Under the pieces are notes generated by a model. That model had not been told where the DNA came from. It was given only the letters and a program-made list of their open reading frames with translations, and ran no database searches. From the NCBI GenBank assembly GCA_964187785.1, contig OZ076409.1, positions 75,146,001 through 75,210,000 of the forward strand: DNA of 64,000 nt, written 5' to 3'. Shown here piece by piece: positions 16,101 to 52,336 of the stretch. The stretch comes from Amphiscolops sp. MND2022 (Eukaryota). A program made the position numbers and the translations under genes. Each line of letters begins with the position of its first letter. The stretch's first letter is position 1.

Positions 16101-17751
16101 AAAGCCATTGAGATGCAACCTGTTTTGCTCAAAACGTAATTCATATCAGTTTGGTAGTCAATCAACACCCTTTGTTGTCATTTGACATCTTTTTTTGTTG
16201 ATATAAGAAAAAATTTCGTGTATTTATTCATTTTTTTCTCATCAAATAACTTGAAACAGTTGAGTACATTCCATCCCCCCTTCACGGGGGAGATGAGAAT
16301 GTACTCGCAAAAAGCTCCGAACTACGGCCCTTACCTTCCTGAGCTACGCAGTATAAAGATTGCATATTGGTTCCGACATTTTGATAGAGTTATATCTTGG
16401 TAATCTGTCTGGGTATGCAGAAAAACCAGCACGTGCTTTTTTATACCAAGTTGCTCACAACGACATTTATTTTATATCAACGCCCCCATATTTATCAACG
16501 CCCCCCGTCCGTGGGCATGCCGAGGCATGCCCTTCGACGACGTATACCAAAATATGTTCGAGCGCGTTAGCCTAGGTGCCCGGATTTCTATTCATTAAAG
16601 TATGTTGCGCGTGTGGGTAGGGCCCCTGGCGCGCTCTTGTGTCCCTGTTCTCATAACTGCAATTTCCGGCAGCATTCTGAGCGATTTTCTAAACTATCCA
16701 TACGATTCGGCTGAAATTTGGCATGTGAGTTCCTATGACAGTTCTAAGAAACATTTCCTACTGGCGTTTTGCCCGGAAAATTTTTTTTGTTGACTTATAA
16801 CGGTTTTTTTGACCAAAAAATGCAATTTTTTCAAAAAATTTTTTTTTCGGAGTCCATATCTTTTTTCAGGGTGCCCGGAGCGGGACGCGTTAAACTGATT
16901 ATAAACTCTACGGTTCATGGGCTTTACGGAGAACCTAAGCTCGTTTCGATCGGACAAATAGTCTTGGAGATATAACGGCATTTTTTGGGAATTTTTTGGA
17001 AATTTTTCTAACGGTCCAGCTTATCTTTGCCATTTTTTCGAAAATGTACTCGCCTAAAGGCCTCCCCTGGCCGGTTTTAATCCCAGCAAAACCATTTGGC
17101 CCTAAATACGGAGTTTCAGCGTTCCAGCATTCCCGGGCGAAAAGTTGTGGGACTTAGAAAAATTTCATAATTTTTCTAAAAAATTTTTTCCGTTTTCCGA
17201 CCTCCCCCCCGAGGGGAAAAGACCCCCCAACCAGTAATTTGAGTGAATTCATGTGGAAAGGCCATGTTTAGAGGAGAAAAATGCCGTTTAGATCGTCTTT
17301 TTATTTTAACCTGTCGTTGACTTATGTTGTTTTGAAGGTGGCCGTTAGATGTGTGAAGCATGTGAAAACGTTATTAATTGTGTCTATATTCCTTTCAAAA
17401 GTTATTGCGATACACGGTGTACAACTCAGAACGTATATAATTCTAATTTCGCAGTTACAATACAATTATATAGGTGAATTGGGTATCACTAGCGTAAGAG
17501 ACGGTTTTACGGAGCGATTTTGATCAAAGGCGATACGGTTCGTTGAAAAATATTATTGAAGAAAACATTGGTTTTTTCGTAGGTTTTTGTCTAGAATTTT
17601 TAAATGTTTTTTCCGTTGGTTATAGGTGTAGGTTATAGGAGAGGTTGTTTCAAAGGTCCTTCTTTGTTTTTCCTGTTCATAGCATAGATTGTTTTTGATG
17701 GCAGAAGTCGACGACGACCAAGCATACGAGTTTTTCTTTTATTCTCGATTT

Positions 17752-18820
17752 TATTACATCTGCGCATTGGTCGTACGGTCGATATTGAGCGTAAAATACG
17801 GTCTTCGAAACAATATGTGGCCATCGTCGATCAATTTCTACGTGTAAGTATCGAATTTGCCCATATGGTAAAATATAAGAATAGAGGGAATGGGTTTTTC
17901 AAAATCCGGCTCATCAGAAGTTAGCTTGCGGCGTTATGCTGAAGGCCCTTCTGATGATGCTATGTCCCCCCTTTTTTAGTGGGTAACCTATGCCCAAATT
18001 TTTTTCAAGCAAATTTTTCCAGCATTTTTGTTTTTTGAGAGTCTTAACCATAATAAGCAACTGATACATGTTTGTGAAATAATATTATTTTCTGAATTTG
18101 TTTTTTGTTGAAAGTTGTTAGTAGAATCTGAATTGTCTTTCCTTGTAAAACTTATGGTATTATATGAGTTTTTAACTGATGTTCTTGAGAATGAATTCGA
18201 GCAATAAAAGACTTGAAACCTCTTGTACTGTATGTTTGATGTATGTTTATTTTGTATTGAGAGTCAAGTAACAAAAGTCAAGTAGCGGAGACTATTACAT
18301 CTGCGCATTGGTCGTACGGTCATTATTAATCATAAAATACGCTCATTGAGAAAATGCGTGATCATCGTCGTTCAATTTCTACGTGTATTTATAATATCTA
18401 CCTATATGTTACATTATAATAATTGGAGGTGATGGGTTTTACAAAATCCGGCTCATCAGAAGTTAGCTTGCGGCGTTATGCTGAAGGCCCTTCTGATGAT
18501 GCTATGTCCCCTCTTTTTTAGTGGGTAACCTATGCCCAAATTTTTTTCAAGCAAATTTTTCCAGCATTTTTGTTTTTTGAGAGTCTTAACCATAATAAGC
18601 AACTGATACATGTTTGTGAAATAATATTATTTTTTGAATTTGGTTTTTGTTGAAAGTTGTTAGTATAATCAGACGTGTCTTTCATTGTAAAACCTTTGAT
18701 ATTATATGAGTTTGTACCTGATGTTCTTGAGATTGAATTCCACCAATAAAAGACTTGAAAACTCTTGTACTGTATGTTTGATGTATGTTTATTTTGTACT
18801 GAGAGTCAAGTAGCAAAAGT
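17752..18820 (+). repeat. Two-copy direct repeat, period ~541 bp, upstream of RepHel
   Basis: TATTACATCTGCGCATTGGTCGTACGGTC starts at 17752 and 18293. Both copies end in GAGAGTCAAGTA(A/G)CAAAAGT. Confidence 0.92.
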
Positions 18821-19234
18821 TGTTTCATCAGCACATCGGTTTCAAAGTGATGATCTGGTATCTGTTTTTACCACGAACGCGTGTATTCAATAATCTAACG
18901 TTTCTCATCGCTCCATAAGCAAAATGCTCTGACACTAATGTTTCTTCAAAATTCACGTAGGACGAATTCGCACAATAAAGGAACTTAATATTATTAATTC
19001 TATTTTCGCCTTTCAAACGGTGGCAGCGCAAATTTCGTTTACAAAGAACGTGTTTCACTAGTATCCATGTTACGCTCCGTACTTCCGATCTTTCAAGTTA
19101 AAAGCGTTGTGAAATGTTTTGGTTCCATGCGAAATGATACATGTTTCAAAATTCGAATTTATTTAATTTTGCAATTCGTCGCTGGCCTAATATTCTAACT
19201 TGTTAATTTCATTGGAACAACTGAAACTTGCTGA

Positions 19235-22200
19235 ATGTTAACGTCTTTGTTGTTTTCCAGGGTTATGGCTCCAAATAGACGTCGAGGACGTCCAAGAGGT
19301 AGCAATAATCGTAATTCCTGTGTTCAATGTAGAGTTTTTATATCACGTTCAGAAACTCTTTGCGGAGGTTGTGCACTTCAACAAGAGACACAGGAGATAG
19401 ATGTCGCTTCGGATGTACCCGACAATGAATCAGCTCGCTCCTTACAACTAATTGTCCCTGTTATGTGTTCTTTATGTCAAGAAAATGAAGTTTCAGCAGA
19501 TTCTCTTTGCCCTTTATGTTGTCCAATTACCTTGCCTAATATAACTTCTGCAGAGTGTCAAAAATGCAGACGAATACCACCAACCGAACTCAATACAATT
19601 CGAATTCAGGAAATAAAACGAACAACTTTTGGATGTTTTGTTACTGGACGACCCGATGAAACTGTGAACATTTGTAATGAATGTGTTTTGTACTCGATAC
19701 ACAGTCAACGGCCAACATGGGCTGCAGCGTGGCCGAGTGTAATCCTTGATTTTCTCACAGGAAAGTATAACGGATCTGTAAACTGTAAACCTTTTCATAA
19801 AGTTTTACCAAGGAGCATTATGCAGCAATATCAACATCTTTTGCCGCAATCAACGTCTGGCAGTGAAGCAACTGTTTTCGATGATCTGACATCCAAATTA
19901 AATGACTTCAATGTATTGAGAGAAGGATTGTCGATTGAAGGAGTCAGAGAAGCACACAACAAGTATTGCTTCCCAGAAGTAAGATGCCCATTTGGATGCA
20001 CGGAGTTTGTAGGAGAAACTGGCCTGGTTCCTTTTCAGTATTTCTTGCAAAAGTTAGACACGCGGTTCAAATTTAACAGTATAAATTGGAAACACCAACT
20101 GAGATGTGTACGACCAGACTGGCTACTGCAATATATTCATAATGCCGACTTCATTATCAAGCCTCATTTGTATTTTGACAGTGTTAAGGGCCTTTGTATT
20201 TCAACATGTCGATTTCACAATGGTGGTTCAAGCAAGCAGTATGTCCAACCTCCCGCGAATCCAACTGGGAGACTTCCCTCGAAGTTTCCAGACCGCTTGG
20301 GCCCTGCAACTATTACTTACAACTGCTATAAACCGGCTAAACCAAACTTTTCGACGCACACATATTCCATGGGTATAGCAAAAGGAAATTTTGGTGGTAT
20401 CAGCTCAACTACAATTTCATGCAAGCGAAGGTGGGACGTCGCATTTGGTCCAGATGACGTTGCGAGAGAATCTTTGTGCAGTAATATGCGCAAAGATATA
20501 AAACCACATCTCCAAAAACTTGTTCAAAGACGTGAGTTGTCGCAAGAACTTTTCGATAGCATCACCTCATGCAACACTGTCCTGAGTCCTCAAAGTATAA
20601 CGAATTGCCTACAAAACACTACATCTGTGTCCTTTCAACCGTCCTTGGCTGTCAAAGAAATACAAGAAAAAGGAGTCCAGATAGCATATTTCCCGTTATT
20701 CGCACACCCCTACGATGATTACGGCTGTCATCCATCAGATACAGCTATTAACAATACCCAACAACTGCATTTGTGGTGTTTTGTTATCATGTTTTCTTTG
20801 AGTTCCACCTTTCACCTCAAATTCAATCAATCTACGTCTAATGAAGAACCGCTTTTGAAAAAGTTGTTTTCATTAGTGCTGTGTTTCAAAAATAAAGTTG
20901 TTGACACAAAAAGAAAACAAGAGATAGATTCCTGTTTACAAAATTTGTCTGATGACATGAACATCGACTTCGTCCAAAAGTTGAGTTCCCTTCTAAACAC
21001 CATTTCGTGTTGCAAAAACAATGACGTTAACGACAGACAGAATGTTGAAACTATTTTAATGTCGTCTAATAATGATGATATTGTCAGCTTTGTGAACAGC
21101 AATGAAAGAAGTAACCCTGATGTGTTTCTGCCAGATAGAGTAATCACACAAGATAGAGAGGCCACATATGAGCTCCGTTCTATCACTTTGTTGGAAGGAA
21201 CCATTGCTAGAACGGTTGTCCGACACGGACATCATTTTGGTTGTTGGTGGATATATACAAGTAATTCCAAAGTGCCAGTTAAAGTGGACGTAAACGACAC
21301 AGCAACGATGGCAAAATTTCATTCAGCGTGGAACTCGTGTCATTATGAAATAATCGATTCTGAAAAAATACGTGAGTCTAAATATCAATATTTGGAACAT
21401 CTTGGTGGACAAGGTAAATTCATTTGTGAAGACCACCAATGTCCACTAACAGTCGTCAATCGGAAGCTCTCAATCATGTGTAGTTTCATAGAACGTTGTC
21501 CTCGTAAAGCAGCATGGCTCTGTCCTGTGACTGATTGCAGATCCTCTGTTTGTCAGAAACACTTTAAAACAGAAATTCTCAGTGATGAGCGAATTTTCAT
21601 TAGAGCTACTACCGCAGAAACAAACAGCCAAAGTTCAACAAGTAATATAACTTTGGAGTTGAATCAACCCGCTGATGATCATTCAGATGTATCGGATCCC
21701 GAATCGGAAACAGATGAATTCTCGTTTGTCAATTTTGCAACTGATTCCGGTCCAGTCAACGATGATGATGGTTTGCATAATACCGATTCTGGAGATGCTC
21801 CTACAGTTTGTGATACATTCGATAAGAGTATACCTACCCACGTACTACTAAACTCTGACTGTCATGTTCTACAAAGACACAGTCACAGGAATGAAAGAAG
21901 CAAAAACAATACAAGGTTCCTACAAAACATTGTTGCATCCTCGGTTGGTGAATCAGTGCCTTTACTTTACCCAGACGCTGCACTTTTTCCAACTCACTTT
22001 TTTCACGAACAAAAAGACAGAACCATTACTGGCGCCCTTCCTGCCCCACTCTATAATCAAACGCAAAGCAAATTATTCAATTTCGCAGATATTGAGGAAC
22101 ACAAGAAAACCGCCCTGCTGAACCCTAATCTTCTACAATCGACAGACATCCGAAGTTTGCAAACATCATTCGATGCAGTTTTCAACAAAAACCTTAGTTT

Positions 22201-25200
22201 TACTGACACCAGAATTGTTTTGAATCGCGGATTTCAAGAAGTGTCGGAGAAGAAGCAAAAATCAATATCACCAGATAATACGAGACTTCAATTTGACAGT
22301 GCAGACTCCAGAGTTAGAGTAAATGAATTAGCTGCTCTTCTCTCGGAAGAACCTGCTACATTCTTCCTCACCTTGACGTGTAACCAGAAAGAACATTTTG
22401 GTGTAGCACCCCTGTTCGAAGCACTGGAAAGAAATTTCAATAGAAACAATAAAGAAGAATGGGAAAAGGCCGTGCAAGCAGAAATTGTTCTGTTCACACG
22501 AGCGTGGTATCGTTCAGCAAATGCAATTATGGAATACATTGAAAAATCTCCGGAGAAACCCTTGGGAACCGTCACGAAACTGTGGTATCGATTCGAATTC
22601 CAGTCTACCAAAGGAAATTTACCTCATATACATGCTGTCATTTGGACAAAAGAAAACCATGACGAACTACAACACAAAGTGTCCTGCTCTGGCTCGTCGG
22701 CGTTATTTGAGTTGCACAAAATTGCCGCAGAAACAAATATGATACCAATAGAAGAAGTTTCTGACATTTGGCACTTATTGATGTCAGTACAGACACACTC
22801 CTGTGAAAAAGCCAACTACAGATGCCATAAAGTTATTAAAAACGATGGTTCTAGTCTTTGCAGGGTTCCTAGGTACCCTCATTCTAATAAGTACTCATGG
22901 CGAAAAGTTCCTTCATACCATTCGGACGAAGCACTGGAGAAACTTCATCACCTTGACCTGGCAGTACCTTCTCGTAGTAGAGACCACACCTATGATGTTT
23001 GCTCGATACTTCAAGGCGGTAAATACGAGTACCCGGCTTCTTCGGATGAACACTTGTCACCATTCAATGTTCTTCTTTTTGTGCTGACAAAATCATCTCA
23101 AAATCTGCAACTTTGTGACGATTATCTGTCTGCCAGATATATTGCTAAATATGCAGCTGGCATTGAAGAACGAGCAGACGCTCGCGTGGATCCTGTTACA
23201 TTCAGAGACATCAATGTTCATACGAAGGGAATCAGAAACATCAAACTTGCTGGAGTAAAACAACAAAATAAAGTTACAGACAAAAAGACTTTGGTTCAGA
23301 TAATTCCCCTAGTGGAATCCATCTGGTGGTTATTGGGTTTCAATTATGTATACAGTTCGGTGAAATTTATACATTTGTCAACCCATGAAAAAACTGAGAG
23401 ATCCACAGTTTTGAAAAATAGACCTACAGCACAACCGTCTGCTTCATTACCGCTACATATAGTTAAAAATGCCACCTTGCCACCATTCCGACAATACACG
23501 CAATCACAGCTTTTATTATTCAGAGACTACCAATCAAGTGATTACGCCAGTTGCAAAATTTCAATTTTTTGTGGTCGACCTCCTCCTCTGTTGTTCGTTG
23601 ACAACCCACGTTTGTATTTCACATGGTTCGCACGATGTCACGTCAAGAAACCTGAGCTTAAAATTACAACTGACGTGAACACTTCCTTTTGGATTGATTT
23701 GTTTGGTAATGCTGTATACTTGAGGAAGAATTATTTGAACGACTTCAATGAATATTTGCAAAGAGTAACATCTGAAGGTCATCCAAGTCTATACAAGTTC
23801 AACGCTGACACTTCAATGATTATGTTACAAAATGACAGAAGTGGGCTGAAAACAATAGATGACTCTTTAGTTCAAGTAGTAACATCGAACATCTTACCGT
23901 CCAATCCATTCAAATTCCTAGTACACTTCGTTCTATCGTATGGACACTTTGAAACTGAAACGGAACTGTTCAACCAATCAAATTTCTTAGAAGTCCTCCA
24001 ACATTCTAAACTTTTGCCCCAAAGAGATGCGTACAGTGATCAAGATGCCTACACATTGATTCGAAAGTATGTTTTATCCGAATTGAAATTTTTACCTGGC
24101 GCAAGTCGTTCCTTCGATCGTCATCTAATTGCAAGTTATGACCTCTTTACAAATCTTGTGCTGAGTAGAGATATTCAAAATTTCACACCGCCACTAGTTT
24201 TACATCGTGCTATATCGGAGGAAGAAGAGGTAAAGTACCAGTTGTTTAATTATGAAAAAAGAAAGAGATGTGTGCAAGGAAGTCTGTTGAATAATGCTCT
24301 GACGCCGCTGACATGTTATCAAGATCAGATTGTGAATGCAACACGACAGAATCCTTTCCAATACACATGCAATTTCCCCCGAGCTGTAGGACAATCAGAT
24401 GAGTCACTAGAATTTCAAAAAAGAGTTTTCAACAATTGTCTCATTAAGTTAGAAGAGTTCATTAATGGAAGTCAAGGCTTTGTGAAACACCAATCCTTTT
24501 TAGGACGACCAGGAAGTGGAAAAACTCTCGTATGTACCATGCTCTTCATGCGAGCCATCGCCAAAGGACTCAATGGTTCAATCACATGTCTAAGTGGTGA
24601 ACGCGCTCAACAACTTGGCGGTGAGCATGTTCACAAAATGTTCAAGTTTCGTGTCAATAGAAGTAAAGTACCCGAACACATGGCTAGCCAGAGTATCAAT
24701 GCCCTTCTAAGAGACGTAACACGGTTCACCGATTTAGAACGTTTAGAAGTCCTCTTCATTGATGAAGTTGGGCAGTTGAACAGCGAACTACTTTGCGCAA
24801 TGGAAATGGTACTGCAGCATGTGCGAGATAATAAACTGCCAATGGGTGGTGTGTTCACAATAATGAGTGGGGACCCCAAACAACTGAAGCCGCCTGATGG
24901 TTCTCTAGTTTGGTTGTCACCCAAATTACTCACTAACTATGACTTTCATTACTTCAGACATTACGTTCGAGCAATACCAGGTTTACTGCGTGAAGTTCTA
25001 ACTCGACTTGACGAAACTGATATTTCCGAGTCTGAAGCCACAGAAATAGCTGAAAGAATAACATCTGCATGTGTGATCAAGTCGTCCTGGAGCGACGAAA
25101 CAGATACTTTTGCAATGCGCGTTTTCAGCACTCGAGCAGCTGAACAACAAGCTGTATTACTACATTCCCAGAAAATTACCAATGATGTCAATTGCACTTG

Positions 25201-26284
25201 TGTCAAATTATCAGCTCAAGATGAAGAAAGTTCGACTGGTTCTTCCATTTGGCGTCAAGCATCTCCGCAAAATAGCAAATTCATAGATTACAACTCCATT
25301 ACTCCCAATAGTGTTTTATTATATAAAGGTGCACTTTTGAGGTTTACCGCAAACATTGCGAATATCCAAGCAAGACAAGGGCAACTATGTGTTACCCTAG
25401 AGACTCCAACTGAAATGACAAACACTTTAGACGTAATGATAGCACCTCCAGGCTGCAGAAAGGTAACAACTATCAATGAAATGCTCTTGGTCGCTTTCGG
25501 ATGGCGGAGAGTCACAATTACTAAGACGTACACACCTGTTCTTACCAACAAAACTTGTTTTCTGAGACGTTTTACATTCCCCATAAAAAACTACGTCGCT
25601 TCTACCATTCACAAGTGCCTGGGTGACACTTTTCCAAAAATTGTAACAAAGATTTCACTCACAGATCCCGATTATAAAATTTGGGAAAAGGAGCAGCTCT
25701 TGGTTCTTCTGAGTCGTGTCACTAAGTTAGACGAAATAACTTTCATTGGAAACAAAACAGATATAGAGACAACATTGTCCACAATAATCCAAAAAAAGAA
25801 CTGCTGGACGGATTTCATTGATAACTTCTTATCAAAACTAACAACAGACAATCAATTACCTGGGACATTGAATCTTCTCGCCAGCCATTTTTCACCTTGG
25901 AACATCATTTTGCCAGAAGATGAAGTCGGCTTTGTTTACTTGCTCATCAGTACAAAAATTGCAGGTGTATTTTTTATTGGCGAAACTGTTGGTTTGAGAA
26001 AATGTTTAAAAGCAATAAATAGTGGCTATGGTCCCGAGAAAACGCGACCCATCGAAAGAAGACCTTGGGGTTTGCTGGCCTTTGTGAGTGGCTTCACAAC
26101 AGGAAATTTACTAACAAATGCAAGACAAAGAAAGTTTCTTGAAGCAACCTTGATTTATGAAACATCCCTGCTCGGCCTCAATATTACAACAGAATCAATT
26201 TATCGTCTGTTTGAGAAAAGTGCCAAAAGCTTCGGAAAGATTAATCAACTACAGATGAGTGTAGTTCAATGTGGCCATGTATGA
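19235..26284 (+). CDS. Helitron-like RepHel protein: Cys-rich N-terminus, HUH (Y2) Rep endonuclease, PIF1-like SF1 helicase, C-terminal GIY-YIG-like domain
   Basis: Single 2349-aa ORF. Rep motif I TFFLTLTCN (~22358), motif II YRFEFQSTKGNLPHIHAVIW (HIH at 22625-22633), motif III YIAKY (23138-23152). Helicase motifs GRPGSGKT (24503), IDEVGQ (~24758), GDPKQLKP, TIHKCLG and LLSRV. C-terminal GFVYLLIS..FFIGET..NSG..RPW..VSGF. The real start may be the ATG at 19265, just after an acceptor-like TTTTCCAG ending at 19260. Confidence 0.92.
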   Translation: MLTSLLFSRVMAPNRRRGRPRGSNNRNSCVQCRVFISRSETLCGGCALQQETQEIDVASDVPDNESARSLQLIVPVMCSLCQENEVSADSLCPLCCPITLPNITSAECQKCRRIPPTELNTIRIQEIKRTTFGCFVTGRPDETVNICNECVLYSIHSQRPTWAAAWPSVILDFLTGKYNGSVNCKPFHKVLPRSIMQQYQHLLPQSTSGSEATVFDDLTSKLNDFNVLREGLSIEGVREAHNKYCFPEVRCPFGCTEFVGETGLVPFQYFLQKLDTRFKFNSINWKHQLRCVRPDWLLQYIHNADFIIKPHLYFDSVKGLCISTCRFHNGGSSKQYVQPPANPTGRLPSKFPDRLGPATITYNCYKPAKPNFSTHTYSMGIAKGNFGGISSTTISCKRRWDVAFGPDDVARESLCSNMRKDIKPHLQKLVQRRELSQELFDSITSCNTVLSPQSITNCLQNTTSVSFQPSLAVKEIQEKGVQIAYFPLFAHPYDDYGCHPSDTAINNTQQLHLWCFVIMFSLSSTFHLKFNQSTSNEEPLLKKLFSLVLCFKNKVVDTKRKQEIDSCLQNLSDDMNIDFVQKLSSLLNTISCCKNNDVNDRQNVETILMSSNNDDIVSFVNSNERSNPDVFLPDRVITQDREATYELRSITLLEGTIARTVVRHGHHFGCWWIYTSNSKVPVKVDVNDTATMAKFHSAWNSCHYEIIDSEKIRESKYQYLEHLGGQGKFICEDHQCPLTVVNRKLSIMCSFIERCPRKAAWLCPVTDCRSSVCQKHFKTEILSDERIFIRATTAETNSQSSTSNITLELNQPADDHSDVSDPESETDEFSFVNFATDSGPVNDDDGLHNTDSGDAPTVCDTFDKSIPTHVLLNSDCHVLQRHSHRNERSKNNTRFLQNIVASSVGESVPLLYPDAALFPTHFFHEQKDRTITGALPAPLYNQTQSKLFNFADIEEHKKTALLNPNLLQSTDIRSLQTSFDAVFNKNLSFTDTRIVLNRGFQEVSEKKQKSISPDNTRLQFDSADSRVRVNELAALLSEEPATFFLTLTCNQKEHFGVAPLFEALERNFNRNNKEEWEKAVQAEIVLFTRAWYRSANAIMEYIEKSPEKPLGTVTKLWYRFEFQSTKGNLPHIHAVIWTKENHDELQHKVSCSGSSALFELHKIAAETNMIPIEEVSDIWHLLMSVQTHSCEKANYRCHKVIKNDGSSLCRVPRYPHSNKYSWRKVPSYHSDEALEKLHHLDLAVPSRSRDHTYDVCSILQGGKYEYPASSDEHLSPFNVLLFVLTKSSQNLQLCDDYLSARYIAKYAAGIEERADARVDPVTFRDINVHTKGIRNIKLAGVKQQNKVTDKKTLVQIIPLVESIWWLLGFNYVYSSVKFIHLSTHEKTERSTVLKNRPTAQPSASLPLHIVKNATLPPFRQYTQSQLLLFRDYQSSDYASCKISIFCGRPPPLLFVDNPRLYFTWFARCHVKKPELKITTDVNTSFWIDLFGNAVYLRKNYLNDFNEYLQRVTSEGHPSLYKFNADTSMIMLQNDRSGLKTIDDSLVQVVTSNILPSNPFKFLVHFVLSYGHFETETELFNQSNFLEVLQHSKLLPQRDAYSDQDAYTLIRKYVLSELKFLPGASRSFDRHLIASYDLFTNLVLSRDIQNFTPPLVLHRAISEEEEVKYQLFNYEKRKRCVQGSLLNNALTPLTCYQDQIVNATRQNPFQYTCNFPRAVGQSDESLEFQKRVFNNCLIKLEEFINGSQGFVKHQSFLGRPGSGKTLVCTMLFMRAIAKGLNGSITCLSGERAQQLGGEHVHKMFKFRVNRSKVPEHMASQSINALLRDVTRFTDLERLEVLFIDEVGQLNSELLCAMEMVLQHVRDNKLPMGGVFTIMSGDPKQLKPPDGSLVWLSPKLLTNYDFHYFRHYVRAIPGLLREVLTRLDETDISESEATEIAERITSACVIKSSWSDETDTFAMRVFSTRAAEQQAVLLHSQKITNDVNCTCVKLSAQDEESSTGSSIWRQASPQNSKFIDYNSITPNSVLLYKGALLRFTANIANIQARQGQLCVTLETPTEMTNTLDVMIAPPGCRKVTTINEMLLVAFGWRRVTITKTYTPVLTNKTCFLRRFTFPIKNYVASTIHKCLGDTFPKIVTKISLTDPDYKIWEKEQLLVLLSRVTKLDEITFIGNKTDIETTLSTIIQKKNCWTDFIDNFLSKLTTDNQLPGTLNLLASHFSPWNIILPEDEVGFVYLLISTKIAGVFFIGETVGLRKCLKAINSGYGPEKTRPIERRPWGLLAFVSGFTTGNLLTNARQRKFLEATLIYETSLLGLNITTESIYRLFEKSAKSFGKINQLQMSVVQCGHV

Positions 26285-26977
26285 GTGAATCTTTCCAACT
26301 TTATTACAACACACTATGAACTAATGACTGTATACTATATGTTAAAGACTTAGGAGTTTGCCGGGATTACGCAGTGATCCCAAGGCAAACTCTACTTGAA
26401 ATTTTAAAATGTTAATTGTTGCATCATCATTATATAACGTTTGTTGAGCCTATCTTTGCCATTGCCATTGTCATAATATTCTGCTTTGTAAATTATATTA
26501 TTAACCTGTCAACCTTTGCTATGAATTGAAATACAAAAAAAATGGAATTCCAAATTCATCAAATCCGATTGGAATCCACATAAAGAAAATGATCGAAATG
26601 AGAGAGTAAAATATTGCACTTCAAACTTTTTTCAACAATCCAACAAGAAAGCATGAGAGAGAAAGAACCTTTTGATGAAATACATGTCTAAATAAATGAA
26701 ACTCTTTTTAGCCATGGTTTTTCTCTTACACGTGTGTATATATCTGGAAATTTAAAGGGAAATAACAAAAAAAATAAGGTTGTGGACATTTATTTCATGA
26801 CAAAAGTTTTTTGATTTAGAAAAAGCGTGCATAGTTTTGATTTATCCGTGCAGATGATACGTATGACGAAAGATTATATGTTCGAGTTAAACATACAAGC
26901 ATAACCGGATTCATCAGATAACAAACTAACCATTTTTTTAAATTTTTCAGATCTTCTGATCCATCTAACTCTGCAAG

Positions 26978-27904
26978 ATGCCAATTATCAATAAAAACTT
27001 GTCCCTGGCGGAAGCAGCTGCGAGAACAACCGGAAAGTTGACAGCAATTGATTTAGATGACATCCAAGAAGGAGCTAACACTGATCGGCGATATTTACTG
27101 TGTACAATTTTGCATGCCAAAAAGTGTTCGAAAGCTGTAACATTTTTCAAGATGACACATGGTCAGAAAAACAAGCAAGAAACGACTTTCAACCGATTCG
27201 TTCTACTTGGAGTTCTTGGAAAAGACAAAGTAGTGGCTGTCTTCACGTACACTCAAGTGGAGAGTGTTGAATTGCTTAGATTTTGCAGCAATTTAACTCC
27301 TGGAAGTGCGTGCGCCATGATACGGCCAAAATTTGATCACAAGTTTATGGGTTCAGTCTCAACGACCCCTATACTAAACACAGCTGAACCTCTGGTACCG
27401 CTGATAATGAAGACTTACCCCCCTGTCGCTTGCCCCCTCAACGTTTCAACCCCTGATTTTCTTCATTTCAACATTGTAACTAAATCATTGGTGTTGTCAA
27501 ACGTGGACGCTGTGTCTCTAGTTTGTAACGGCTTGTTCTGTGACGGCCAACCGAAAACCGAATGCCCCTGCTTGGAAGTCGACAATAGGAAGTCAAGCTG
27601 GGCTTTAACTGCAGACGTTGCTTGCCAAGAAATTTGTCACAGAGCGAAAATACGATCCAAAAATTTGATAACACTCTTCGCACCAAAATGTAAATCAGCG
27701 GATCCCGACAAATCTGATTTCGATGTGCTCACACTGTCTGACTGCGTCGATAATTGTGTGACTAAAGTCAATTCTGCTAACGGATGGCTTCTTTTTGGGT
27801 GGATGAAACCTACAGAAACATCTTTGGAGGCGACTAACTATGACTTGGAAGTCCACATAGTCTCGATTCGACCCTTTGTAGAAAGCGACGTAGATGAAGG
27901 TTAG
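26978..27904 (+). CDS. Second element-borne gene of unknown function with a Cys cluster (CNGLFCDGQPKTECPC); probably exon 1 of a spliced gene
   Basis: 308-aa ATG-initiated ORF with coding-like composition between AT-rich flanks. It is preceded by CTAAC, a pyrimidine tract and TTTTTCAG (ending 26950). A donor-like GAAG|GTTAGA lies at 27899/27900. Confidence 0.8.
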   Translation: MPIINKNLSLAEAAARTTGKLTAIDLDDIQEGANTDRRYLLCTILHAKKCSKAVTFFKMTHGQKNKQETTFNRFVLLGVLGKDKVVAVFTYTQVESVELLRFCSNLTPGSACAMIRPKFDHKFMGSVSTTPILNTAEPLVPLIMKTYPPVACPLNVSTPDFLHFNIVTKSLVLSNVDAVSLVCNGLFCDGQPKTECPCLEVDNRKSSWALTADVACQEICHRAKIRSKNLITLFAPKCKSADPDKSDFDVLTLSDCVDNCVTKVNSANGWLLFGWMKPTETSLEATNYDLEVHIVSIRPFVESDVDEG

Positions 27905-28034
27905 AAATATAAAAAATTTCCACTTTTACACAAACTGCCATGTTTGGACAAAAAATTTTTACAATGAAATAATTCTGGCTAATACTTTATAAGCATAAAT
28001 ATATAACTTTCTAATTTAACTAAATTGTTTGCAG

Positions 28035-28174
28035 AAGCATACAAACTTCTCCAATACGTGTTGCCGCAGCAACCAACCCCGGAGTTTGCTGGAGTTAGCG
28101 ACAATAATCAAAACGCTACAACATCATCAGATACTACATCAGCAAATGAATCCACTGGGACTGGCAGTGGTTGA
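28035..28174 (+). CDS. Probable terminal exon of the second gene
   Basis: An AT-rich 135-nt GT..AG intron (27900-28034, ending CTAAATTGTTTGCAG) would join in frame to EAYKLLQYVLPQQPTPEFAGVSDNNQNATTSSDTTSANESTGTGSG-stop, giving about 353 aa in total. Confidence 0.55.
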
Positions 28175-28801
28175 AAACTTCACAATTAATCAACAAATGA
28201 CAGAGCTGCATCAGTACATATGTTTGTCGTAGAGTTACTTATTCACTTCCAATCAAAAAATCAACGTTTATTTGCTGATATCAAATTGAACTAAATATAA
28301 ATACTGATTGAAAATAAGTTTGTTGAAATGATAATGTTATGTTGATTTAGTACACTTGTCTTGCCAAAAGTCGTGTTAGTTGATGTTAATGGTCTCTTGC
28401 TTAATTTTTCTCATCGTATTATATAGACTGTGACATTATTTTGGTTTTTTTTGAACGTCTTGCAATTAATATTTCTGTTCTTTAACGTTTTTTCTTAGAA
28501 TTTCTTCAATAATCAAAAATCCTCAATTTAGCATTGATTAGAAAAGGTTAGTGAGTCGAAAAAGTAAGCAGTTATTAGTTTTCGCAAGTTAATTTAAAAG
28601 CCTTCAGTAATCTTTTTGCGTATTATCATATCAATCTTTGAGACTTATCAAACTTTTTAAACGTTAACCTGATAAGATTGTCTTTTTCTGAAACTGACTC
28701 ACACATACCGACACGACGCCCACCGTCCGTAGGCATGCCGAGGCATGCCTTTCGACGACGTATGCCAAATACCTTAAAACCGACGCGCACTCTCCCGCTA
28801 G

Positions 28802-31800
28802 GTGCCCGGCCCCATAGGCCACATAAGCTTCGAGGGCGGGGTAGGGCCCCCTGCCCGAGCCTAGTAAAAACAACGTAAGGCGATTATAACAGTGAGGTAT
28901 CGATTTTCTAAACGAGCCTTACGATTTGGCTGAAATTTTGCATACGGCTTCCTATAACAATCCTAAGAACTAATCCCTACTGGCAATTTGCCCGGAAAAA
29001 TCAAAAAGTGGGTCAAAATCTTAGTTTTTTGGTCGAAAAATGGCGTTTTTTCGAAAATTTTTTTTTCAAGAGCCCATATCTCGCCCCCAGGTGCTCGGAG
29101 CGGGTCGCACGTGGACGTTGATATTGCTAGGCACTTCGTAAGGAGTCCGTAGACAAATTTTCGTACAGATCGGATAAAAATTGACTGAGTAATAGCCGCA
29201 AATCCGACGAATTTTTCAGAAAATTCTGGTACATCTAGTCTATCTCTGCCGTTTTTTGCCCAGATTTTTTTCCAGGACCTCTCCTAAAGGCCTCCCCTGG
29301 CCGGTTTACGTCCCAGAAAAACCATTTGGCCCTTTTGCCGCAGTTTCAGCGTTCCAGGATTCCCCGGGTAAAAGTAAAATGACTTAGAATTTTTTCGAAA
29401 AATTTTCAAATTTTTTTTTTCAACTTCAGGCCTCCCAAAGTCAAGAAACGTTCACACAACTAGTATTGCAAGTGAATGCATGTGGAAAGTGCTCGAATAG
29501 ACGAGAAAAATGAGCTATTATAAACCTCTGTAGCTCAACCTGACGTTGACTTATGATAATTTTAGTGTGAGCTTGCTATGTGAGAAAAAATTTCAAAAAT
29601 TGAAAATCGAGCTAAGTCTCATCCAAAACTCATCGGAATACGTTCAATCCACCCTAAAGCGGTTTAATTCCAGTTACTAAGTGCAGCAACACCATTCAAG
29701 GTCATTTAACCCATATTTATAATTTTTGACACCGTCTTATCCATTTGAAAGTTCGAAACAGTTGAGTACATTCCATCTCCCCTACGTGGGAGATGGTAAT
29801 GTACTCGCAAAAAGCCAAGGTCCTAGCGCCCTATTCTATCCGGCGTTGCATCAGAAATGCAGTAGCATGAGCTCCAGGTTGTTTGCAGTAGCCTTTACGT
29901 ATGTTGTGACTATGTATTACAATTCTAACTCTGTTACTAAACATGAAAAAATTGTTTCAATCCCAAAAATTTTCATTTCAACTTTAGTATGTCACCAATA
30001 AACATATATCCATCTTTCCTACTACAACCACCCTACCACCCGGCCCCTTGTCCACTGTTCAACCGTGCACGTCTAGGTGCCCGGATTTCTATTCATTAAA
30101 GTATGTTGCGCGTGTGGGTAGGGCCCCGTGGCGCGCTCTTGTGTCCCTGTTCTAAAATCTATAATTTCCGGCAGCATTCTGAGCGATTTTCTAAACTATC
30201 CATACGATTCGGCTGAAATTTGGCACACGTACTCCCCTCGGCACGGTGAAGATGATTTCCTACTGACGTTTTTCCCGCAAAATTTTTTTTGTTGTCCAAA
30301 ATAACGGTTTTTGGGGTAAAATTTTGAACTTTTTTTAAATTTTATCTTATATCTCGCCACGGGTTTACGCTAGCGCTTCAAAACCCTGCTAAAGAAAGCT
30401 AGCAAACTGTCTCAGGAATGCGGTGTGAAATTTTCAGCTCAATCGGACTCAAACTCAGGGAGATATAGCGTTTTTCCGGAGCGGGGGGGTTTCATTTTTC
30501 TAACGGTCCAGCTTATCTTAGCCATTTTTTCGAAAATGCACTCGCCTAAAGGCCTCCCCTGGCCGGTTTTATTCCCAGCAAAACCATTTGGCCCTAAATA
30601 CGGAGTTTCAGCGTTCCAGCAATCCCGGGCGAAAAGTTGTGGGACTTAGAAAATTTCAAAAATTTTCAAAAATTTTTTTTTCCGTTTTCCGCCCTCCCCC
30701 CCTAGGGGAAAAGACCCCCCAACCAGTAATTTGAGTGAATTCATGTGGAAAGGCCATGTTTAGAGGAGAAAAATACCGTTTAAATTGTCTTTTTATCTTT
30801 ATTCAACGTTGACTTATGACGTTTTGAAGGTGATGTTTGGACGTGTGAAGCAAGTGAATAGTAAACGTTATGAGTATTTATCTGATCTGAAAGCCATTGA
30901 GATGCAATATGGTTTGCTCAAAACGTAATTCATTGCAGTTTGGCAATCAATCAACACCCTTTGTTGTCATTTGACATCTTTTTTTGTTGATATAAGAAAA
31001 AATTTCGTGTATTTATTCATTTTTTTCTCATCAAATAACTTGAAACAGTTGAGTACATTCCATCCCCCCTTCACGGGGGAGATGAGAATGTACTCGCAAA
31101 AAGCCCCGAACTACGGCCCTTACCTTCCTGAGCTACGCAGTATAAAGATTGCATTTTGGTTCCGACATTTTGATAGAGTTATTTCTTGGTAGTCTGTCTG
31201 GGTATGCAGAAAAACCAGCACGTGCTTTTTTATACCAAGTTGCTCACAACGACATTTATTTTATATCAACGCCCCCATATTTATCAACGCCCCCCGTCCG
31301 TGGGCATGCCGAGGCATGCCCTTCGACGACGTATACCAAAATATGTTCGAGCGCGTTAGCCTAGGTGCCGGGATTTCTATTCGATAAAGTAAGTTGCGCG
31401 ATTGGGTAGGGCCCCGTGAGCGCGCCCGTGTCTGTGTTTTTTGAACCTGAATTTGCGGGTGCCAAAATAGATGATCTCCTAAACTATCCATACGATTTGG
31501 CTCAAATTTGGCATACGGGTTCCTGAGACAGATATAAGAACTAATTCCTACTGGCGTTTTGCCCGGAAAATTTTTTTTGTTGCGCAAACTTGAAATTTTT
31601 GACAAAAAAATGCGATTTTTTTTGAAAAATTTTTTTTGAGATGCCATATCTTTTTTCAGGGTGCCCGGAGCGGGACGCGTTAAACTGATTATAAACTCTA
31701 CGGTTCATGGGCTGTACGGGGAATTTATTTTTGTTGGAATCCGACTTGTAGATTTTGAGATATATTATCAAATTTGGGTGTTTTTTTTCCAATTTTTCGA

Positions 31801-34800
31801 AAAACCTGGTTTATCTCTGCCGTTTTTTGCCCAGATTTTTTTCTAGACCCTCTCCTAAAGGCCTCCCCTGGCCGGATTACGTCCCAGCAAAACCATTTGG
31901 CCCTAAATACGAAGTTTCAGCGTTCTAGCATTCTCGGGCGAAAAGTTGTGGGACTTAGAAAATTTTTTTTTAAAACGCAAAATGTGTAAAGTCAATTTCA
32001 GGCCTCCCAAAGTCAAGGAACTTCCACACAACTAGGATTGCAAGTGGATGCATGTGGAAAGTGCTTGAATAGGCGAGGAAAATGAGTTATTATAAAACTC
32101 TGCAGCTAAACCTGATGTTGACTTATGACAATTTTAGTGTGAGCTTGCTGTGTGAAAAAAAAATTCAAAAATTGAAAATCGAAGCTAAGTCTCATCCAAA
32201 ACTCATCGGAATACGTTCAATCCATTCCAAAGCGGTTTACTTCCAGCTATAGACTGCAGCAACACTATTCAAGACCATTGTACCCCTTTATATTAGTTTT
32301 GACATTGTATTATTCATCCGAGAGCACAAAGCAGTTGAGTACATTCCATCTCCTTTTCGGGGGAGATGAGAATGTACTCGCTAAAGAACAGGTACTACAG
32401 CCAATTTTTGTATTTATGCGAAGCCATTCTATGCTATTGCACATAACAACTATGCTAGTGACTTAATTTTGCCTACACTTTGCTATGACATATGCTAAAC
32501 GTTTGGTCCTTACAACAACATACACATGACTAACGTCAACACCACATACTGTTACCAACGCCCACCGTCCGTGGGCATGCCGAGGCATGCCCTTCGACGA
32601 CGTATGCCAAATACCTTCCAGCGACGCTCGCGCTCCCCGGCTAGGTGCCGGTGTTTTTTTACACAAAGGGGGATGTTGCGCGTGTGGGGAGGGTCCCTGA
32701 CGCGCTCCCGGGATTTCGGATTTTTTAACCTTTACGTACCCATCAAAAATTTTGGGATCTCGAAAACTAGCCGTACGATTTGGCTGAAATTTGGCACACG
32801 TACCCCCCTCGGCACGGTGAAGATGATTCCCTACTGACGTTTTGCTCGCTAAACATTTTTTGTTGACCAAAATAACGGTTTTTGGGGTAAAATTTTCAAC
32901 TTTTTTTAAATTTCATCTTATATCTCGCCACGGGTACACGCTAGCGCTTCCAAACCTTGCTGACGAAAGTTTGCAAACTGTCTCAGAAATGCTGTGTGAA
33001 ATTTTCAGCTCAATCGGACTTAAACTCGAGGAGATATAGCGTTTTTCTGGAGCGGGGGGGTTTCATTTTTCTAACGGTCCAGCTTATCTTTGCCATTTTT
33101 TCGAAAATGCACTCGCCTAAAGGCCTCCCCTGGCCGGTTTTCTTCCCAACAAAACCATTTGGCCCTAAATACGGAGTTTCAGCGTTCCAGCATTTCCGGG
33201 CGAAAAGATGTGGGACTTAGAAAAGTTCAAAAATTTTCAAAAAAAATTTTTCCGTTATTTGGGCCCCCAAAGTGGGGGAAAAGACCCCCCAACCAGTAAA
33301 GCAAGTGAATGCATGTGGAAAGCCCTTGCTTAGACGAGAAAAATGCCGTTTAGAACGTCTTTTTATCTTAACTTGACATTGACTTTTGTCGTTTTGAAGG
33401 TGACCGTTAGATACGGAAAATTGATGTTTTGAGTATTTATCCCATCTGAAAGCCATTGAGATACAACATGTTTTGCTCAAAACGTGTTTCATTGCAGTTT
33501 CGCTGTCCATTATCACCCTTTGGTGTCTTTTCACGTAATTTTCGTTTCTATAATAACAATTTTTTTGTGTATTTATTCATTTTTTTCTCATCAAACAACT
33601 TGAAACAGTTGAGTACATTCCATCTCCCTTCCCGGGGGAGATGAGAATGTACTCGCTAAAGATCAGGAACTACGGTCTATATCTTCCACAACACAAAAGG
33701 GATTGCAAATGGTTTCAGTTTGTCGCAGAAAACTTCTTTTTGCCCTCTGTGACTCGACAAAATGAACGTTTCTTACTTACTTTGAAACTCAGCATACCAC
33801 AACTCATCTCTAACGTCAGCGCCCCCCTACTTGCATCAACGCCCACCGTCCGTGGGCATGCCGAGGCATGCCCTTCGACGACGTATACCAAGATATACCT
33901 GGAGCGCGGTAGCCGCTAGGTGGCCGTGTCTTTTCGACGTGCTTTTGCATTGAGGAGTGGGTAGGGCCCCGCGACGACCTAGAAGAATTGGATGCTCACC
34001 GAAACGTGCAGAATTCTACGAGATCTCATAGTTTGAGCCATACGATTTTTCTGAAATTTGGCATGTGGCCTGGAATTGGTGAGTAGGTAAAACGTGTAGA
34101 AGGTAATTTTTCCCAAATTCCACTGTGAGAGGAGATATGGGCAAATAACGGACCCAAAAATGGGGAAAATGCACATTTTTCAACTTTGTCAGCCAATATC
34201 TCTTTTCCAGGTGCCCGTAGCGTTCCGCACGTGGACATCAATATTGCTCAGCGCTGTTGGAGGAGTGCGTGGACAAATTTTGGTTTAAATCGGACTAAAA
34301 CTTGACGAGAAATTAACGGTTTTTTGGGCGTTTCCGGGGTAAATTTTTTAACGGTCCAGCTTATCTTTGCCATTTTTTCGAAAATGTACATGCCTAAAGG
34401 CCTCCCCCTGGCCGAATTTACTCCCAGCAAACCCATTTGGCCCTAAATACGGAGTTTCAGCGTTCCAGCATTCCGGGGCGGAAAGTTGTGGGACTTGGAA
34501 AAATTTCAAAATTTTTTCAAAAAATTTTTTTCCCGTTTTCCGGGACCCCAATGAAGAGGAACGACCCCCCCGACCAGTATTTTGAGTGAATTCATGTGGA
34601 ACGCCCATGTTTGGAGGAGAAAAATGCCCTTTAGCACATCTTTTTATCTTAACTTGACATTGACTTATGACGTTTTGAATGTGATGTTAGGATATATGAA
34701 GCATGTTAAAAGTTGAAGTTTTGAGTCTTTATCTCATCGGAAAACCATTGAGATACAAGCAGTTTTGCTAAAAACGATTTTCATTGTAGGTTAGCAGAGT

Positions 34801-36433
34801 ATTAGTACACTTTGATGTCATTTGAGTATTTTTTTCTTCTATATAATAACTGTTTTTATGTATTTATTCCAATTTATCTCATCTTTCAACATCAAGCAGT
34901 TGAGTACATTTCATCTCCCTTTCGGGGGAGATGAGAATGTACTCGCTAAAAACCTACTGCTATGGCGCCAATGTTTGGATGGGAAGTTTTCTTTGCTTTG
35001 AAAAAAGTTATTTTTAATTACTTGATTTTTTAAAACAATAATTAACATGAAGTACATTACTTGCTCCTACTACTACCACCATACATCTCTAACGTCAACG
35101 CCCCCTGCTTGCATCAACGCCCCATCGTCCGTGGGCATGCCGAGGCATGCCCTTCGACGACGTATGCCAAATGCCCAGTGCCACGCAGTCTTTTCCCGCT
35201 AGGTGGCCGTGTCTTTTCGACGTGCTTTTGCATTGAGGAGTGGGTAGGGCCCCGCGACGACCTAGAAGAATTGGATGCTCACCGAAACGTGCAGAATTCT
35301 ACGAGATCTCATAGTTTGAGCCATACGATTTTTCTGAAATTTGGCATGTGGCCTGGAATTGGTGAGTAGGTAAAACGTGTAGGAGGTGATTTTTCCCAAA
35401 TTCCACTGTGAGACGAGATATGGGCAAATAACGGTCCCAAAAATGGCAAAAATGCACTTTTTTCAACTTTGTCAGCCCATATCTCGTTCCCAGGTGCCCG
35501 GAGCGGGACGCGTTAAGCTGATTATAAACTCTAGGGTGTTGAGGCTGTACGGGGAAGTCAGGCCCGTTCCGATCGGACTTGTAGTCTTGGAGAAATAACG
35601 GTATTTTTGGGGAACCTTTTCTAACGGTCCAGCTTATCTTTGCCATTTTTTCGAAAATGTACTCGCCTAAAGGCCTCCCCCTGGCCGAATTTACTCCCAG
35701 CAAAACCATTTGGCCCTAAATACGGAGTTTCAGCGTTCCAGCATTCCCGGGCGAAAAGTTGTGGGACTTGGAAAATTTTCAAAAATTTTCAAAAATTTTT
35801 TTTTCGTTTTCCGGGCCCCCAATGAAGGGGAAACGACCCCCCAACCAGTATTTTGAGTGAATTCATGTGGAAAGCCCTTGTTTTGACGAGAAAAGTACCG
35901 TTTAGAACATCTTTTTATCTTGACTCAACGTTGACTTATGACGTTTTGAATGTGATGTAAGGATGTAGGAGGCATGTGATAAGTTGATGTTTTGAGTCTT
36001 TATCTCATATGAAAGCGGTTGAGATGCAAGCTGTCCTGCTCAAAACGTCTTTCGTTGTAATTTTCCAGTGCACCAATACCCTTTGGTGTCATATAAACAT
36101 ACTTTTCGTCGATATATTAACAATTTTAATGTATTTATTCCAATTTTTATTATCTTTTAACTCAAAACAGTTGAGTACATTTCATCTCCCTTTCGGGGGA
36201 GATGAGAATGTACTCGCTAAAGACCTAGCGCCATGACCAAAAGTTTGAAACCCACGTTTTTTTTTTTAAAAATTAATATACTTGAAATACATTACTTGAC
36301 TTTACTACTACAACCCACCTCCAACGACAACGCCCCCCTGCTTGCATCAACGCCCACCGTCCGTGGGCATGCCGAGGCATGCCCTTCGACGACGTATGCC
36401 AAATGCCCAGTGCCACGCAGTCATTATCGCTAG
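28802..36433 (+). mobile_element. Six non-autonomous ~1.28-kb units
   Basis: Unit lengths are 1275, 1288, 1280, 1275, 1283 and 1231, with the same core and junctions. Unit 33920-35202 is nearly identical to unit 10119-11400. Confidence 0.85.
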
Positions 36434-38609
36434 GTGGATGGTATTTTATAACAATTAAAGTGTTTTTTTCCGGAGTTTGTGGCTTTGGAAAAAACAAAAG
36501 GCGAGAAATTGGGCACTCCAGGCTGAACCTAAAAACACCCTAAAATTCGCCCGATTTTTTCACGATCTCGAAACCCAACCGTACGATTTGGCTGAAAATT
36601 TGCATGTGGCTCCTAATCAATGAGTAATGAAAAAGTGTAGAAGTGACTTTTCCTGGGAAAATTGTTTTTGTTGCACTTTTTGCGCAATTTTTGACCGATT
36701 GTTGCGTTTTTTATGTCACTTTTGACTTTTCAGGCAAAAAACTCATGGATGCTTTGATCCTAGCGCATCCAGTGTTTCGAACAAAAAGTTGAAGCATGTT
36801 CTTTTACGTATGTTGTGAAAATTTGGTTGCCATCGTATCACCCCCCACTGAGATAGAGGGGAACTTCCGGTGGATTTTAGCACCCTAAAAACGAGGACCT
36901 CCTAAATTTCAGCATGAAGCGGTAGTTTTAGCGTGCTCATACCCTGCTGAAGTTTTGTTGGGCATATTGAGATAGTCATGATATCATGTGTTCAGTTCAC
37001 CCCCCATCACCCCCTGGACCGGAAATGAACTTTTTTTGCACTATCATACCGGAAGTCTCCAATTTCACCGTTAAGCAGTTCTTGTACGAGCAACTACCAG
37101 GACATCAAAATTGAAGTACCACCTGAGGTTAACGTAGTGACTACGTGTTGTCCAGTCATAGGTTCCGATATGACCGGAAATGGGGTCAAAACCCCCTTTT
37201 TTGGTTGTTTTTTAGCAATTTGGCTAGTGTTTAGTCCACATTCAAGTCGCGTAAGTCAATTGAACCAGTGTCAGAATAAACTGTATGCTCACTGCGTAGA
37301 CGTAACTTACACTGACAGATACCGGAAGTAACCCCCCGTGACCGGAAGTTGTCATTTTTGACCGGAAATGGTCCAAAATGTAGCGTAAAATCAGTTTTTC
37401 ACTGCTTTTTAAAGTCAACCAATGACTTTTTCAATCTCCTCGAGCTTGTATTCAGGTTCCTCTTTGTTACCCGTGCACTTTGCAACAAATACACATCTGT
37501 AAAATATTTTCTATAATATCGTCGGATAGAAAAATAACGTGTTTTTGGGACTTTTTTCAAAAATATTAGACTATATCTGTCATTTTTACCCAAAGTTTTT
37601 CTACAGTGCAACCACAGTGGTTAGTCTCTGCCCAAATTTATGCCTAAAAAACTATTTGGCCCATTGGCCTCAGTTTGAGCGTTCCAGCTTTGCGTGATCA
37701 TAAGCTAAGGAACTTGAAAAATTTTCAAACTTTTTTCAAAAAAAAATTTCTCACATTCATGTCTCCCAAAGTGAAGAAACTTCCACACAACTAGGATTGC
37801 AAGTGGATGCATGTGGCAAGCCCTATATTTGAAGAGAAAAATGCCACTTAGAACGTCTCTTTAACGTAACTTGCCGTTAACGTATGCTGCTTTGAATGCG
37901 AGCTTGATAAGAGGTCGAGTATCAAATTGTGTAAATGGAACGTATGTCTCGTCGAAAACTCATCGGAATTCATGCAATGAACCCCAACTGTCCTCAATTG
38001 CAATTCCCTACTGCAACAACGTCTTTATGGTACATTTTACCCATTTTCATCAGTGTCAAACTTATTTTTAAAATCAGTTAGCAAGAAACACTTGAGTACA
38101 TTTTCATCTCTCCCCAGCGGGTGAGATGAGAATGTTCTTGCTAATTGCCAGGCACTACGGCCCCCTTTTGTTTTAATGCGACGCATTCTCTGCTTTAACA
38201 CATAGATATTTTATTTCGCTTGATTTTTTGTATACTCTCTGACTTGTTATTATAAGTTTCTCGTCATTACTTTACATAAATTTACAACCATAAAACGTTA
38301 TCGTCAACGCCACAAGCATTTAGACACCCACAATTCCGTAGGTATGTCGAGGCATACCTTTCGATTACGTATGTCAAACGCAAACGCGATAAAAAGTGCT
38401 GAAATTCTGAAACAGTGGCAAACAATTTTGACTATTTGACATATGGTAGGTTTTTATATGGAATTTACACATCACTGACATTTCACAACATTCCAGCTGA
38501 CGCCCACATACCAACATCAACGCCCACCGTCCGTGGGCATGCCGAGGCATGCCCTTCGACGACGTATGCCATTTTTTTTGTATCTACACCCGATTGCGGT
38601 AACGGCTAG
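36434..38609 (+). mobile_element. Non-autonomous ~2.18-kb unit
   Basis: 2176 bp between CTAG|GTG junctions. It is closely similar to 49880-52059 and carries a decayed and an intact terminal hairpin. Confidence 0.85.
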
Positions 38610-52059: not shown

Positions 52060-52336
52060 GTGGTCGGGGTCGTTTTCCCCATTGATTTTGCCGGCGCGGG
52101 AGATGGGTCCTGAAGCCGGCCCCTAGTACCAATCGAGCATATGAGGAAACAGCAAGTGTTAATCACGATCTCGAAAACTACCCATACGAATTGACTGAAA
52201 TTTGGCACACAGCTGCATGATCAAATTCTAAGAACTTTTTCCTGCTGACGTTTTGCGGGGAAATTTGTATATGTTGACTTTTGGTCAAAAAACCGGATAT
52301 AACGTCGAAAATGAACGTTATATCCGAATTGTTGTA

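Follow-up and report, generated by a model that had tools for sequence, protein, structure and literature searches.

The transposase encoded in a 64,000-nucleotide stretch of the Amphiscolops sp. MND2022 genome (contig OZ076409.1, positions 75,146,001 to 75,210,000; hereafter the window) ends in an SLX1-type GIY-YIG domain, and this fusion is, judged from sequence, the mark of a large Helitron-like lineage that is apparently unnamed. In the window copy the domain is likely an inactive nuclease, very probably unable to cut, because three of the five residues required for cutting have been lost. The element carrying it (Table 1) belongs to a mixed array of independently assorting units that meet at CTAG/GTG (the slash marks the cut, whose exact position within CTAGGTG is inferred from the Helitron CTRR-3' rule), which is arguably more striking than the domain itself.

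Table 1. Features of the autonomous element and of the surrounding array (window coordinates)
Feature	Position	Strand	Remarks
Head-to-tail array	1166..64000	+	32 junctions, 31 complete units
Whole autonomous element	16576..28801	+	12,226 bp, bounded by two CTAG/GTG junctions
Left junction	16572..16578	+	CTAGGTG
5' non-coding region	16576..17465	+	68-83% identical to the array's short non-coding units
5' hairpin	16607..16634	+	conserved core GGG(T/G)AGGG(C/T)CCC; folding z only -1.25
Tandem duplication	17752..18820	+	~530 bp, 90% identity, 5' of the ORF
Transposase ORF	19235..26284	+	single intact ORF, 2,349 aa: Cys-rich N-terminus, Rep, Pif1-like helicase, GIY-YIG (ORF call, Pfam)
HUH Rep domain	21842..23224	+	His1131 (22625); two-tyrosine motif starting with Tyr1302 (23138); Helraiser-like fold
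Pif1-like SF1B helicase	24482..25804	+	Walker A at 24503, DE at 24761
SLX1-type GIY-YIG domain	25928..26281	+	profile and predicted fold; Tyr2235 and Glu2303 kept; Tyr, Arg and His changed to Phe2247, Cys2257 and Ile2261
ORF2	26969..27904	+	311 aa stop to stop; homologues beside RepHel in metagenome loci
3' hairpin	28731..28750	+	9-bp stem, ends 51 nt before the element end
Right junction	28798..28804	+	CTAGGTG

The GIY-YIG domain and its lineage

The domain constitutes the last ~120 residues of the 2,349-aa ORF (19235-26284), and the motifs from which an initial annotation had proposed an SLX1-like fusion at the RepHel C-terminus lie in frame there. Taken alone, the window domain matches the Pfam GIY-YIG family weakly (E=0.2); it is the exception among 11 aligned domains, ten of which are matched (best E=1.3e-12). 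A profile built from the aligned domains of relatives places Slx1 at the top among PDB sequences (E=9e-9). The structure comparison that had been suggested gave the same answer. For the AlphaFold model of the window domain (mean pLDDT 84), At-HIGLE and Slx1 head the Foldseek ranking (E 9.5e-5 to 6e-4), and they do so again when 48,161 chains are compared with VIA-align (Z 10.7, rmsd 2.4 Å over 108 residues including the C-terminal tail). Profile and predicted fold therefore bear out the proposed identity. A RING finger following the domain, as in fungal and animal SLX1, is absent, the protein stopping with the GIY-YIG fold.

Five residues (Tyr17, Tyr29, Arg39, His43 and Glu82) are described as essential in yeast SLX1, where single substitution of Tyr29, Arg39 or His43 leads to a dramatic loss of cutting without misfolding (PMC8287910, available text). 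Two of the five are retained in the window copy (Tyr2235 and Glu2303), together with Asn2262 and the RPW motif; the second Tyr has become Phe (codon 25973-25975), the Arg Cys (codon 26003-26005) and the His Ile (codon 26015-26017). The last two replacements had been read correctly at the outset, while Phe2247 is a further loss. The core of the window domain carries a charge of +5 and has Lys at the positions of Arg35 and Arg38 in Cg-Slx1, which are reported as DNA-contact positions of Slx1 (PMC4407285, available text).

When the C-terminal 1,200 residues of the window protein were used as a phmmer query, 316 cluster representatives were matched at E≤1e-30, the best 150 of which were listed. 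The domain is found in 138 of 164 sampled relatives, a proportion that refers to a query containing the domain and to the best 150 of the 316 matches. Most of the 26 relatives without a domain match (24) end no more than 57 residues past the helicase or have no helicase, whereas P0014 is decayed and P0079 has other sequence in that position; four or five relatives (P0024-26 and P0031-32) stop with the helicase, and in these the domain may be missing or separated by an intron. Since the query had included the domain, the fusion was checked independently by scanning metagenomes with the Rep motif alone. The family Rep was found in 70 of 82 loci. Of these, 45 extend to the helicase, and GIY-YIG is present in 42, the remaining three being cut by the locus end. 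In L022, L027 and L052 the domain lies in a separate frame past the helicase (an intron or a split), and there too the catalytic Arg is missing. A language-model search returned two PIF1 + GIY-YIG clusters, in one of which diatoms are commonest (four members with a recorded phylum, a lead only), and the domain occurs in none of the 170 HLE1-type and HLE2-type reference proteins.

Helentrons carry an AP endonuclease where the window RepHel has GIY-YIG, as first annotated. The fusion is not peculiar to this copy, since by both counts it is the hallmark of a whole lineage. The ORFs adjoining family RepHel genes include UCH protease, Ulp1 protease, SET and MYND domains (L017:8752-10740, L019:1030-2550, L036:2-772 and L024:11624-12667), and in L024 a direct repeat of ~175 bp (93%) lies on both sides of the RepHel gene (oriented 5515-5691 and 14235-14408).

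The window ORF matches Helitron_like_N and PIF1 in Pfam, and its 870-residue N-terminus (19235-21841) contains conserved Cys/His clusters with no Pfam or PHROG match. Both HUH His residues are present in 98 of 98 family Reps and the two Tyr residues in 97 and 96 of them, respectively. The Rep model (mean pLDDT 64) has one strong match, Helraiser (Foldseek E=3e-6; Z 15.5 over 317 residues). For phylogenetic placement, references were gathered from two seeds: a viral-contig RepHel with canonical motifs yielded 105 HLE1-type proteins and a DUF6570-bearing RepHel yielded 65 HLE2-type RepHel matches, these labels being our own and given by motif, Pfam and seed. The domain trees took in 31 of 91 family, 24 of 62 HLE1-type and 27 of 48 HLE2-type usable sequences. 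All three groups are monophyletic in both the Rep and the helicase trees, with the family clade (support 1.0, stem 1.3-1.4) outside the 24 HLE1-type and 27 HLE2-type references. Identity between the family and either type is 17-19%, compared with 21-24% between HLE1-type and HLE2-type proteins, and the helicase tree with five outgroups joins the family to HLE1 with a support of only 50. The Rep phylogeny recommended in the initial annotation thus yields a monophyletic family, and the lineage appears to fall outside HLE1 and HLE2 as sampled.

A prokaryotic or viral origin was considered and rejected, the family Rep being present in none of the ten GTDB matches to the Rep motif and not in the single viral match. 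A tblastn search of the family Rep against plasmids and phages returned nothing, and capsid families were found neither in Pfam among 54 neighbouring ORFs (54 of 126 candidates) nor in PHROGs among eight proteins. A canonical-motif Helitron RepHel of 1,676 aa (L114:3832-8859) is encoded on a contig catalogued as part of a giant-virus MAG. Pfam scores the family Rep weakly or misses it, and the lineage is therefore likely under-annotated in genomes.

Loss and retention of catalytic residues

Whether the loss of the Arg and His residues is general among homologous RepHel proteins had been raised at the outset, and it is not, as 98 of the 138 domain-bearing relatives retain all five catalytic residues. 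With respect to the Arg/His pair, the Arg only is missing in 10 domains, both residues are missing in 27 and the His only in none. On a Rep + helicase tree of 91 proteins, 83 tips of which bear the domain, parsimony places Arg at the midpoint root and requires six changes, where shuffled labels require 18.8 on average and 15 at the least; the intact relative P0004 is placed within the subclade of the window copy. The intact five-residue state is, on this tree, the ancestral one, and the Arg would have been lost about six times while structural residues stayed. The 27 domains without Arg and His have kept the Asn and the Pro in every case (100%) and the final Phe in 89%, and the second Tyr in 4%.

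Within the window family, Phe, Cys and Ile are found in all eight sequences that reach the C-terminus, and none of the 62 core positions varies among seven full-length copies. The dead form is also found in five of five members of the P0003 cluster and in 12 of 12 of the P0007 cluster, the P0007 family missing the Glu as well. As three multi-copy families near the window copy share the dead form, they can likely do without cutting by a domain of their own. Intact and dead families appear on contigs of equal size, which were taken to be the same contig (a proxy only).

The repeated loss could reflect a vestige in neutral decay, for the removal of which too little time has elapsed. Such decay is seen in P0012-P0014, which are far decayed, and in P0008 and P0009, which have no tail, while the loss of the Arg in P0010 is a single-copy change among intact cluster mates. 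However, in close dead pairs the core is conserved like the helicase (0.71 versus 0.73, as judged from protein sequences of five pairs), and a deep clade (P0034, P0057, P0063, P0064, P0066, P0067 and P0097) has kept the fold residues over 0.5-1 substitutions per site, which makes neutral decay unlikely as the explanation. At deep divergence the dead domains are less conserved (0.27-0.35 versus 0.42-0.48).

The initial annotation had further supposed that the domain binds DNA without cutting it. This is plausible for the window copy, given its charge and the two basic contact positions, but the property does not seem to be generally kept. The median core charge is 0 in the 27 domains without Arg and His, compared with +3 in intact ones (one unit of the gap being the catalytic Arg itself), so DNA binding is not kept in general, and long-term binding by the dead domains as a group is doubtful.

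Element ends and the junction array

The 5' hairpin has 27 sites in the window, each ~40-45 nt past a junction, and the closing pair of the 3' hairpin is compensatory (of 28 plus-strand copies, four have A-T and 24 have G-C). ORF2, which has no match in Pfam, PHROG or PDB, likely encodes an OB-fold ssDNA-binding protein, as suggested by a language-model lead only. Members of the ORF2 family (L054, L039, L050, L008, L072 and others) contain a conserved Cys cluster and adjoin RepHel on either side and strand. An Rfam scan of 14000-32000 returned nothing, so the array there is not a known RNA-gene repeat.

The hairpin loop (T/G)AGGG(T/C) is also seen ~5 kb upstream of Rep, near the 5' end, in three loci of distant relatives (L080:201-225, L069:209 and L040:7, numbered with RepHel on the plus strand), where it is possibly a conserved origin signal. 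A scan for this loop gave three plus-strand matches in 70 loci, all far upstream of Rep, and five in 57 control loci, and is suggestive only. In the metagenome loci, most of which are incomplete, no CTAGGTG was seen at the ends of elements, and the junction may vary by family.

These end structures bear on the proposal, made in the initial annotation, that the dead domain is a target-recognition module that binds hairpin or branched junction DNA. The target is a junction flanked by hairpins, the window copy has Lys where Cg-Slx1 has Arg35 and Arg38 and its core is charged +5, and 23 of the 27 dead domains retain an Arg at the fourth residue ahead of the Glu position. Yet the domains of L080, L069 and L040 retain the catalytic Arg, so the shared hairpin loop is independent of a dead domain; moreover, the older among the dead domains are neutral or acidic, and HUH Reps recognize ends themselves (PMC4778049, available text). 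Nothing points to target recognition by the GIY-YIG domain in particular, the recognition of ends and junctions being the usual task of the HUH Rep, and this part of the proposal is regarded as distinctly unlikely.

The array contains 30 exact CTAGGTG junctions and two variants. All 30 copies of the heptamer lie on the plus strand, each at a unit border, with none on the minus strand (shuffle mean 2.5). Units of 1.2-1.4 kb predominate (25), with three of 2.2 kb and one each of 3.1, 6.5 and 12.2 kb; the short units are 42-99% alike, and units have a common 5' hairpin and mostly a 3' hairpin. At its two ends the autonomous element is homologous to the short units, along 890 bases at the 5' end and 50-100 bases at the 3' end. 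The 6.5-kb unit (52060-58551) contains an internal tandem repeat of ~901 bp, and in the same part of the array (52060-58551 and 58552-64000) the last two units are 94% alike, with the variant junctions CTTGGTG and CTGGGTG. A host gene was not found in the window.

When 22 junction-centred segments were compared, similarity on the left predicted similarity on the right everywhere (rho 0.41-0.93) except around the junction, where rho was -0.10 to -0.03 (p 0.57-0.87), as opposed to 0.55-0.66 (p 0.001) at mid-unit. As the uncoupling occurs solely at the junction, the units assort independently, joined at one site, which points to insertion of units at one another's ends, and it is likely that the array grew by such insertion of related mobile units. 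Alternatively, the array may be an ordinary satellite, or a rolling-circle concatemer, that was entered by one Helitron and shares its ends incidentally. Most units are indeed ~1.29 kb long, some pairs are 95-99% identical and an empty insertion site was not seen. On the other hand, neighbouring units are unlike one another, similarity uncouples solely at CTAGGTG, units of six size classes have both ends in common, and the autonomous element is homologous to short units at its two ends. Independent assortment at one site is predicted neither by a plain satellite nor by a one-circle concatemer, and this alternative is considered improbable.

Proposed mechanism and relation to known systems

The explanation that we favour, and regard as reasonably probable, is that an SLX1-type GIY-YIG nuclease became fused to a Helitron-like Rep-helicase and that the window copy has kept a dead version of it as a DNA-holding or structural module, the cut being supplied by co-resident intact families or by host nucleases. 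That the domain still cuts, by means of a rearranged active site or helicase residues, is very improbable: Tyr2235, Glu2303, Asn2262 and the RPW motif are retained and other GIY-YIG enzymes accept Tyr in place of the His, but the Arg is described as invariant across the superfamily (PMC8287910, available text), three residues are gone together and the P0007 family has lost the Glu as well.

In the mechanism proposed here, the Rep would nick at the CTAG/GTG junction and the helicase would peel off one strand as far as the 3' hairpin and CTAG. A circle would then form, the seam of which is again CTAG/GTG, identical to the array junction; insertion at junctions would consequently follow from the specificity of the Rep itself. 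Transfer of the circle into an existing junction would stack autonomous and non-coding units in mixed arrays and would leave a flap or a four-way branch. This would be resolved or trimmed by the GIY-YIG domain in intact members, whereas for the window copy the branch cut would come from co-resident intact families or host nucleases. The route resembles that described for Helraiser, in which a 5' nick and unwinding are followed by a stop at the hairpin and CTAG and by circle formation; Helraiser likewise ends in CTAG and forms circles with precise head-to-tail seams (PMC4778049, available text). SLX1 is reported to cut four-way junctions and flaps (PMC4407285, available text), and by analogy the trimming of branched intermediates of transposition is the likely function of the intact domain.

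More tentatively, and with greater doubt, the family may constitute a separate major eukaryotic rolling-circle lineage with its own SLX1-like resolvase, site-specific at its own junction and building cassette-like arrays, the families of which repeatedly switch the nuclease off, keep the binding module and rely on intact neighbours. For the question of how Helitrons resolve the insertion intermediate, and of what role the extra nuclease of Helentrons plays, the lineage provides natural live and dead versions of a well-understood branch-cutting nuclease in otherwise intact transposases that are 60-70% identical, which makes a direct test possible. For site-specific integration, too, a HUH transposase of eukaryotes that targets a defined junction of 7 bases would be of interest.

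The lineage is apparently undescribed in print: neither it nor a dead GIY-YIG domain in Helitrons was found in the full text covered, a scope to which most subscription papers and Repbase do not belong, and the available parts of PMC6431247, PMC3627910, PMC10288648, PMC13565253 and PMC8788227 contain no such element. The sole printed case found of GIY-YIG in a Helitron-like element is the Helentron HelenSM92 of Sphagnum, which, unlike the window element, has TIRs and T-T target sites (PMC11417382, available text); it was compared by description only and is absent from the trees and their references. Replitrons, with a one-tyrosine Rep and no helicase, differ from the window transposase, which has a two-tyrosine Rep and a helicase.

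'HLE Paramecium', reported as a third Helitron clade, shares with the window element very long ORFs, a divergence deeper than that between HLE1 and HLE2, strict target choice and strand-uniform clusters with non-autonomous copies, but has a CCAA end and a telomere-repeat target, neither of which is present in the window element (PMC13085455, available text). The term 'GIY' is absent from the main text and seven supplements of that paper as available, and its printed protein motif (one short motif only) fits a pattern that is present in 39 of 65 HLE2 references and in none of 91 family members. HLE2 elements, or Helentrons, resemble the window element in having a second nuclease within the element. 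Their AP endonuclease or DUF6570, however, is absent from the window protein and from 18 of 18 relatives, and their target between two T residues is not found at the window junctions.

HLE1 Helraiser (PDB 7lcc; PMC4778049, available text) likewise combines a two-tyrosine HUH Rep with a Pif1-like helicase, and its Rep fold matches that of the window (Z 15.5 over 317 residues), yet at 17% identity. The window element also has the 3' hairpin, the CTAG end (in 30 of 32 junctions it agrees with the CTRR-3' end of HLE1, if the cut falls after CTAG) and a likely OB-fold gene downstream. The differences are that the HLE1 hairpin lies 11 nt from the end, compared with 51 nt here, that the 5'-TC start and the target between A and T are missing, the junction core CTAGGTG being flanked by the element's own kind, and that HLE1 has no C-terminal GIY-YIG. 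In addition, the motif II Glu is separated from the second His by 11 residues in 101 of 105 HLE1-type references, versus at least 13 in 98 of 98 family Reps.

The C-terminal domain itself finds its closest counterpart in SLX1 and At-HIGLE (PDB 6seh, 7cq2, 4xlg and 7wme; PMC8287910 and PMC4407285, available text). It differs from SLX1 in its fusion to a transposase and in having no RING finger after it, but the fold is the same over 103-108 residues (Z 9.7-10.7), the motif order and the RPW and GF signatures are common to both, and most members of the lineage share all five active-site residues, of which the window copy has two.
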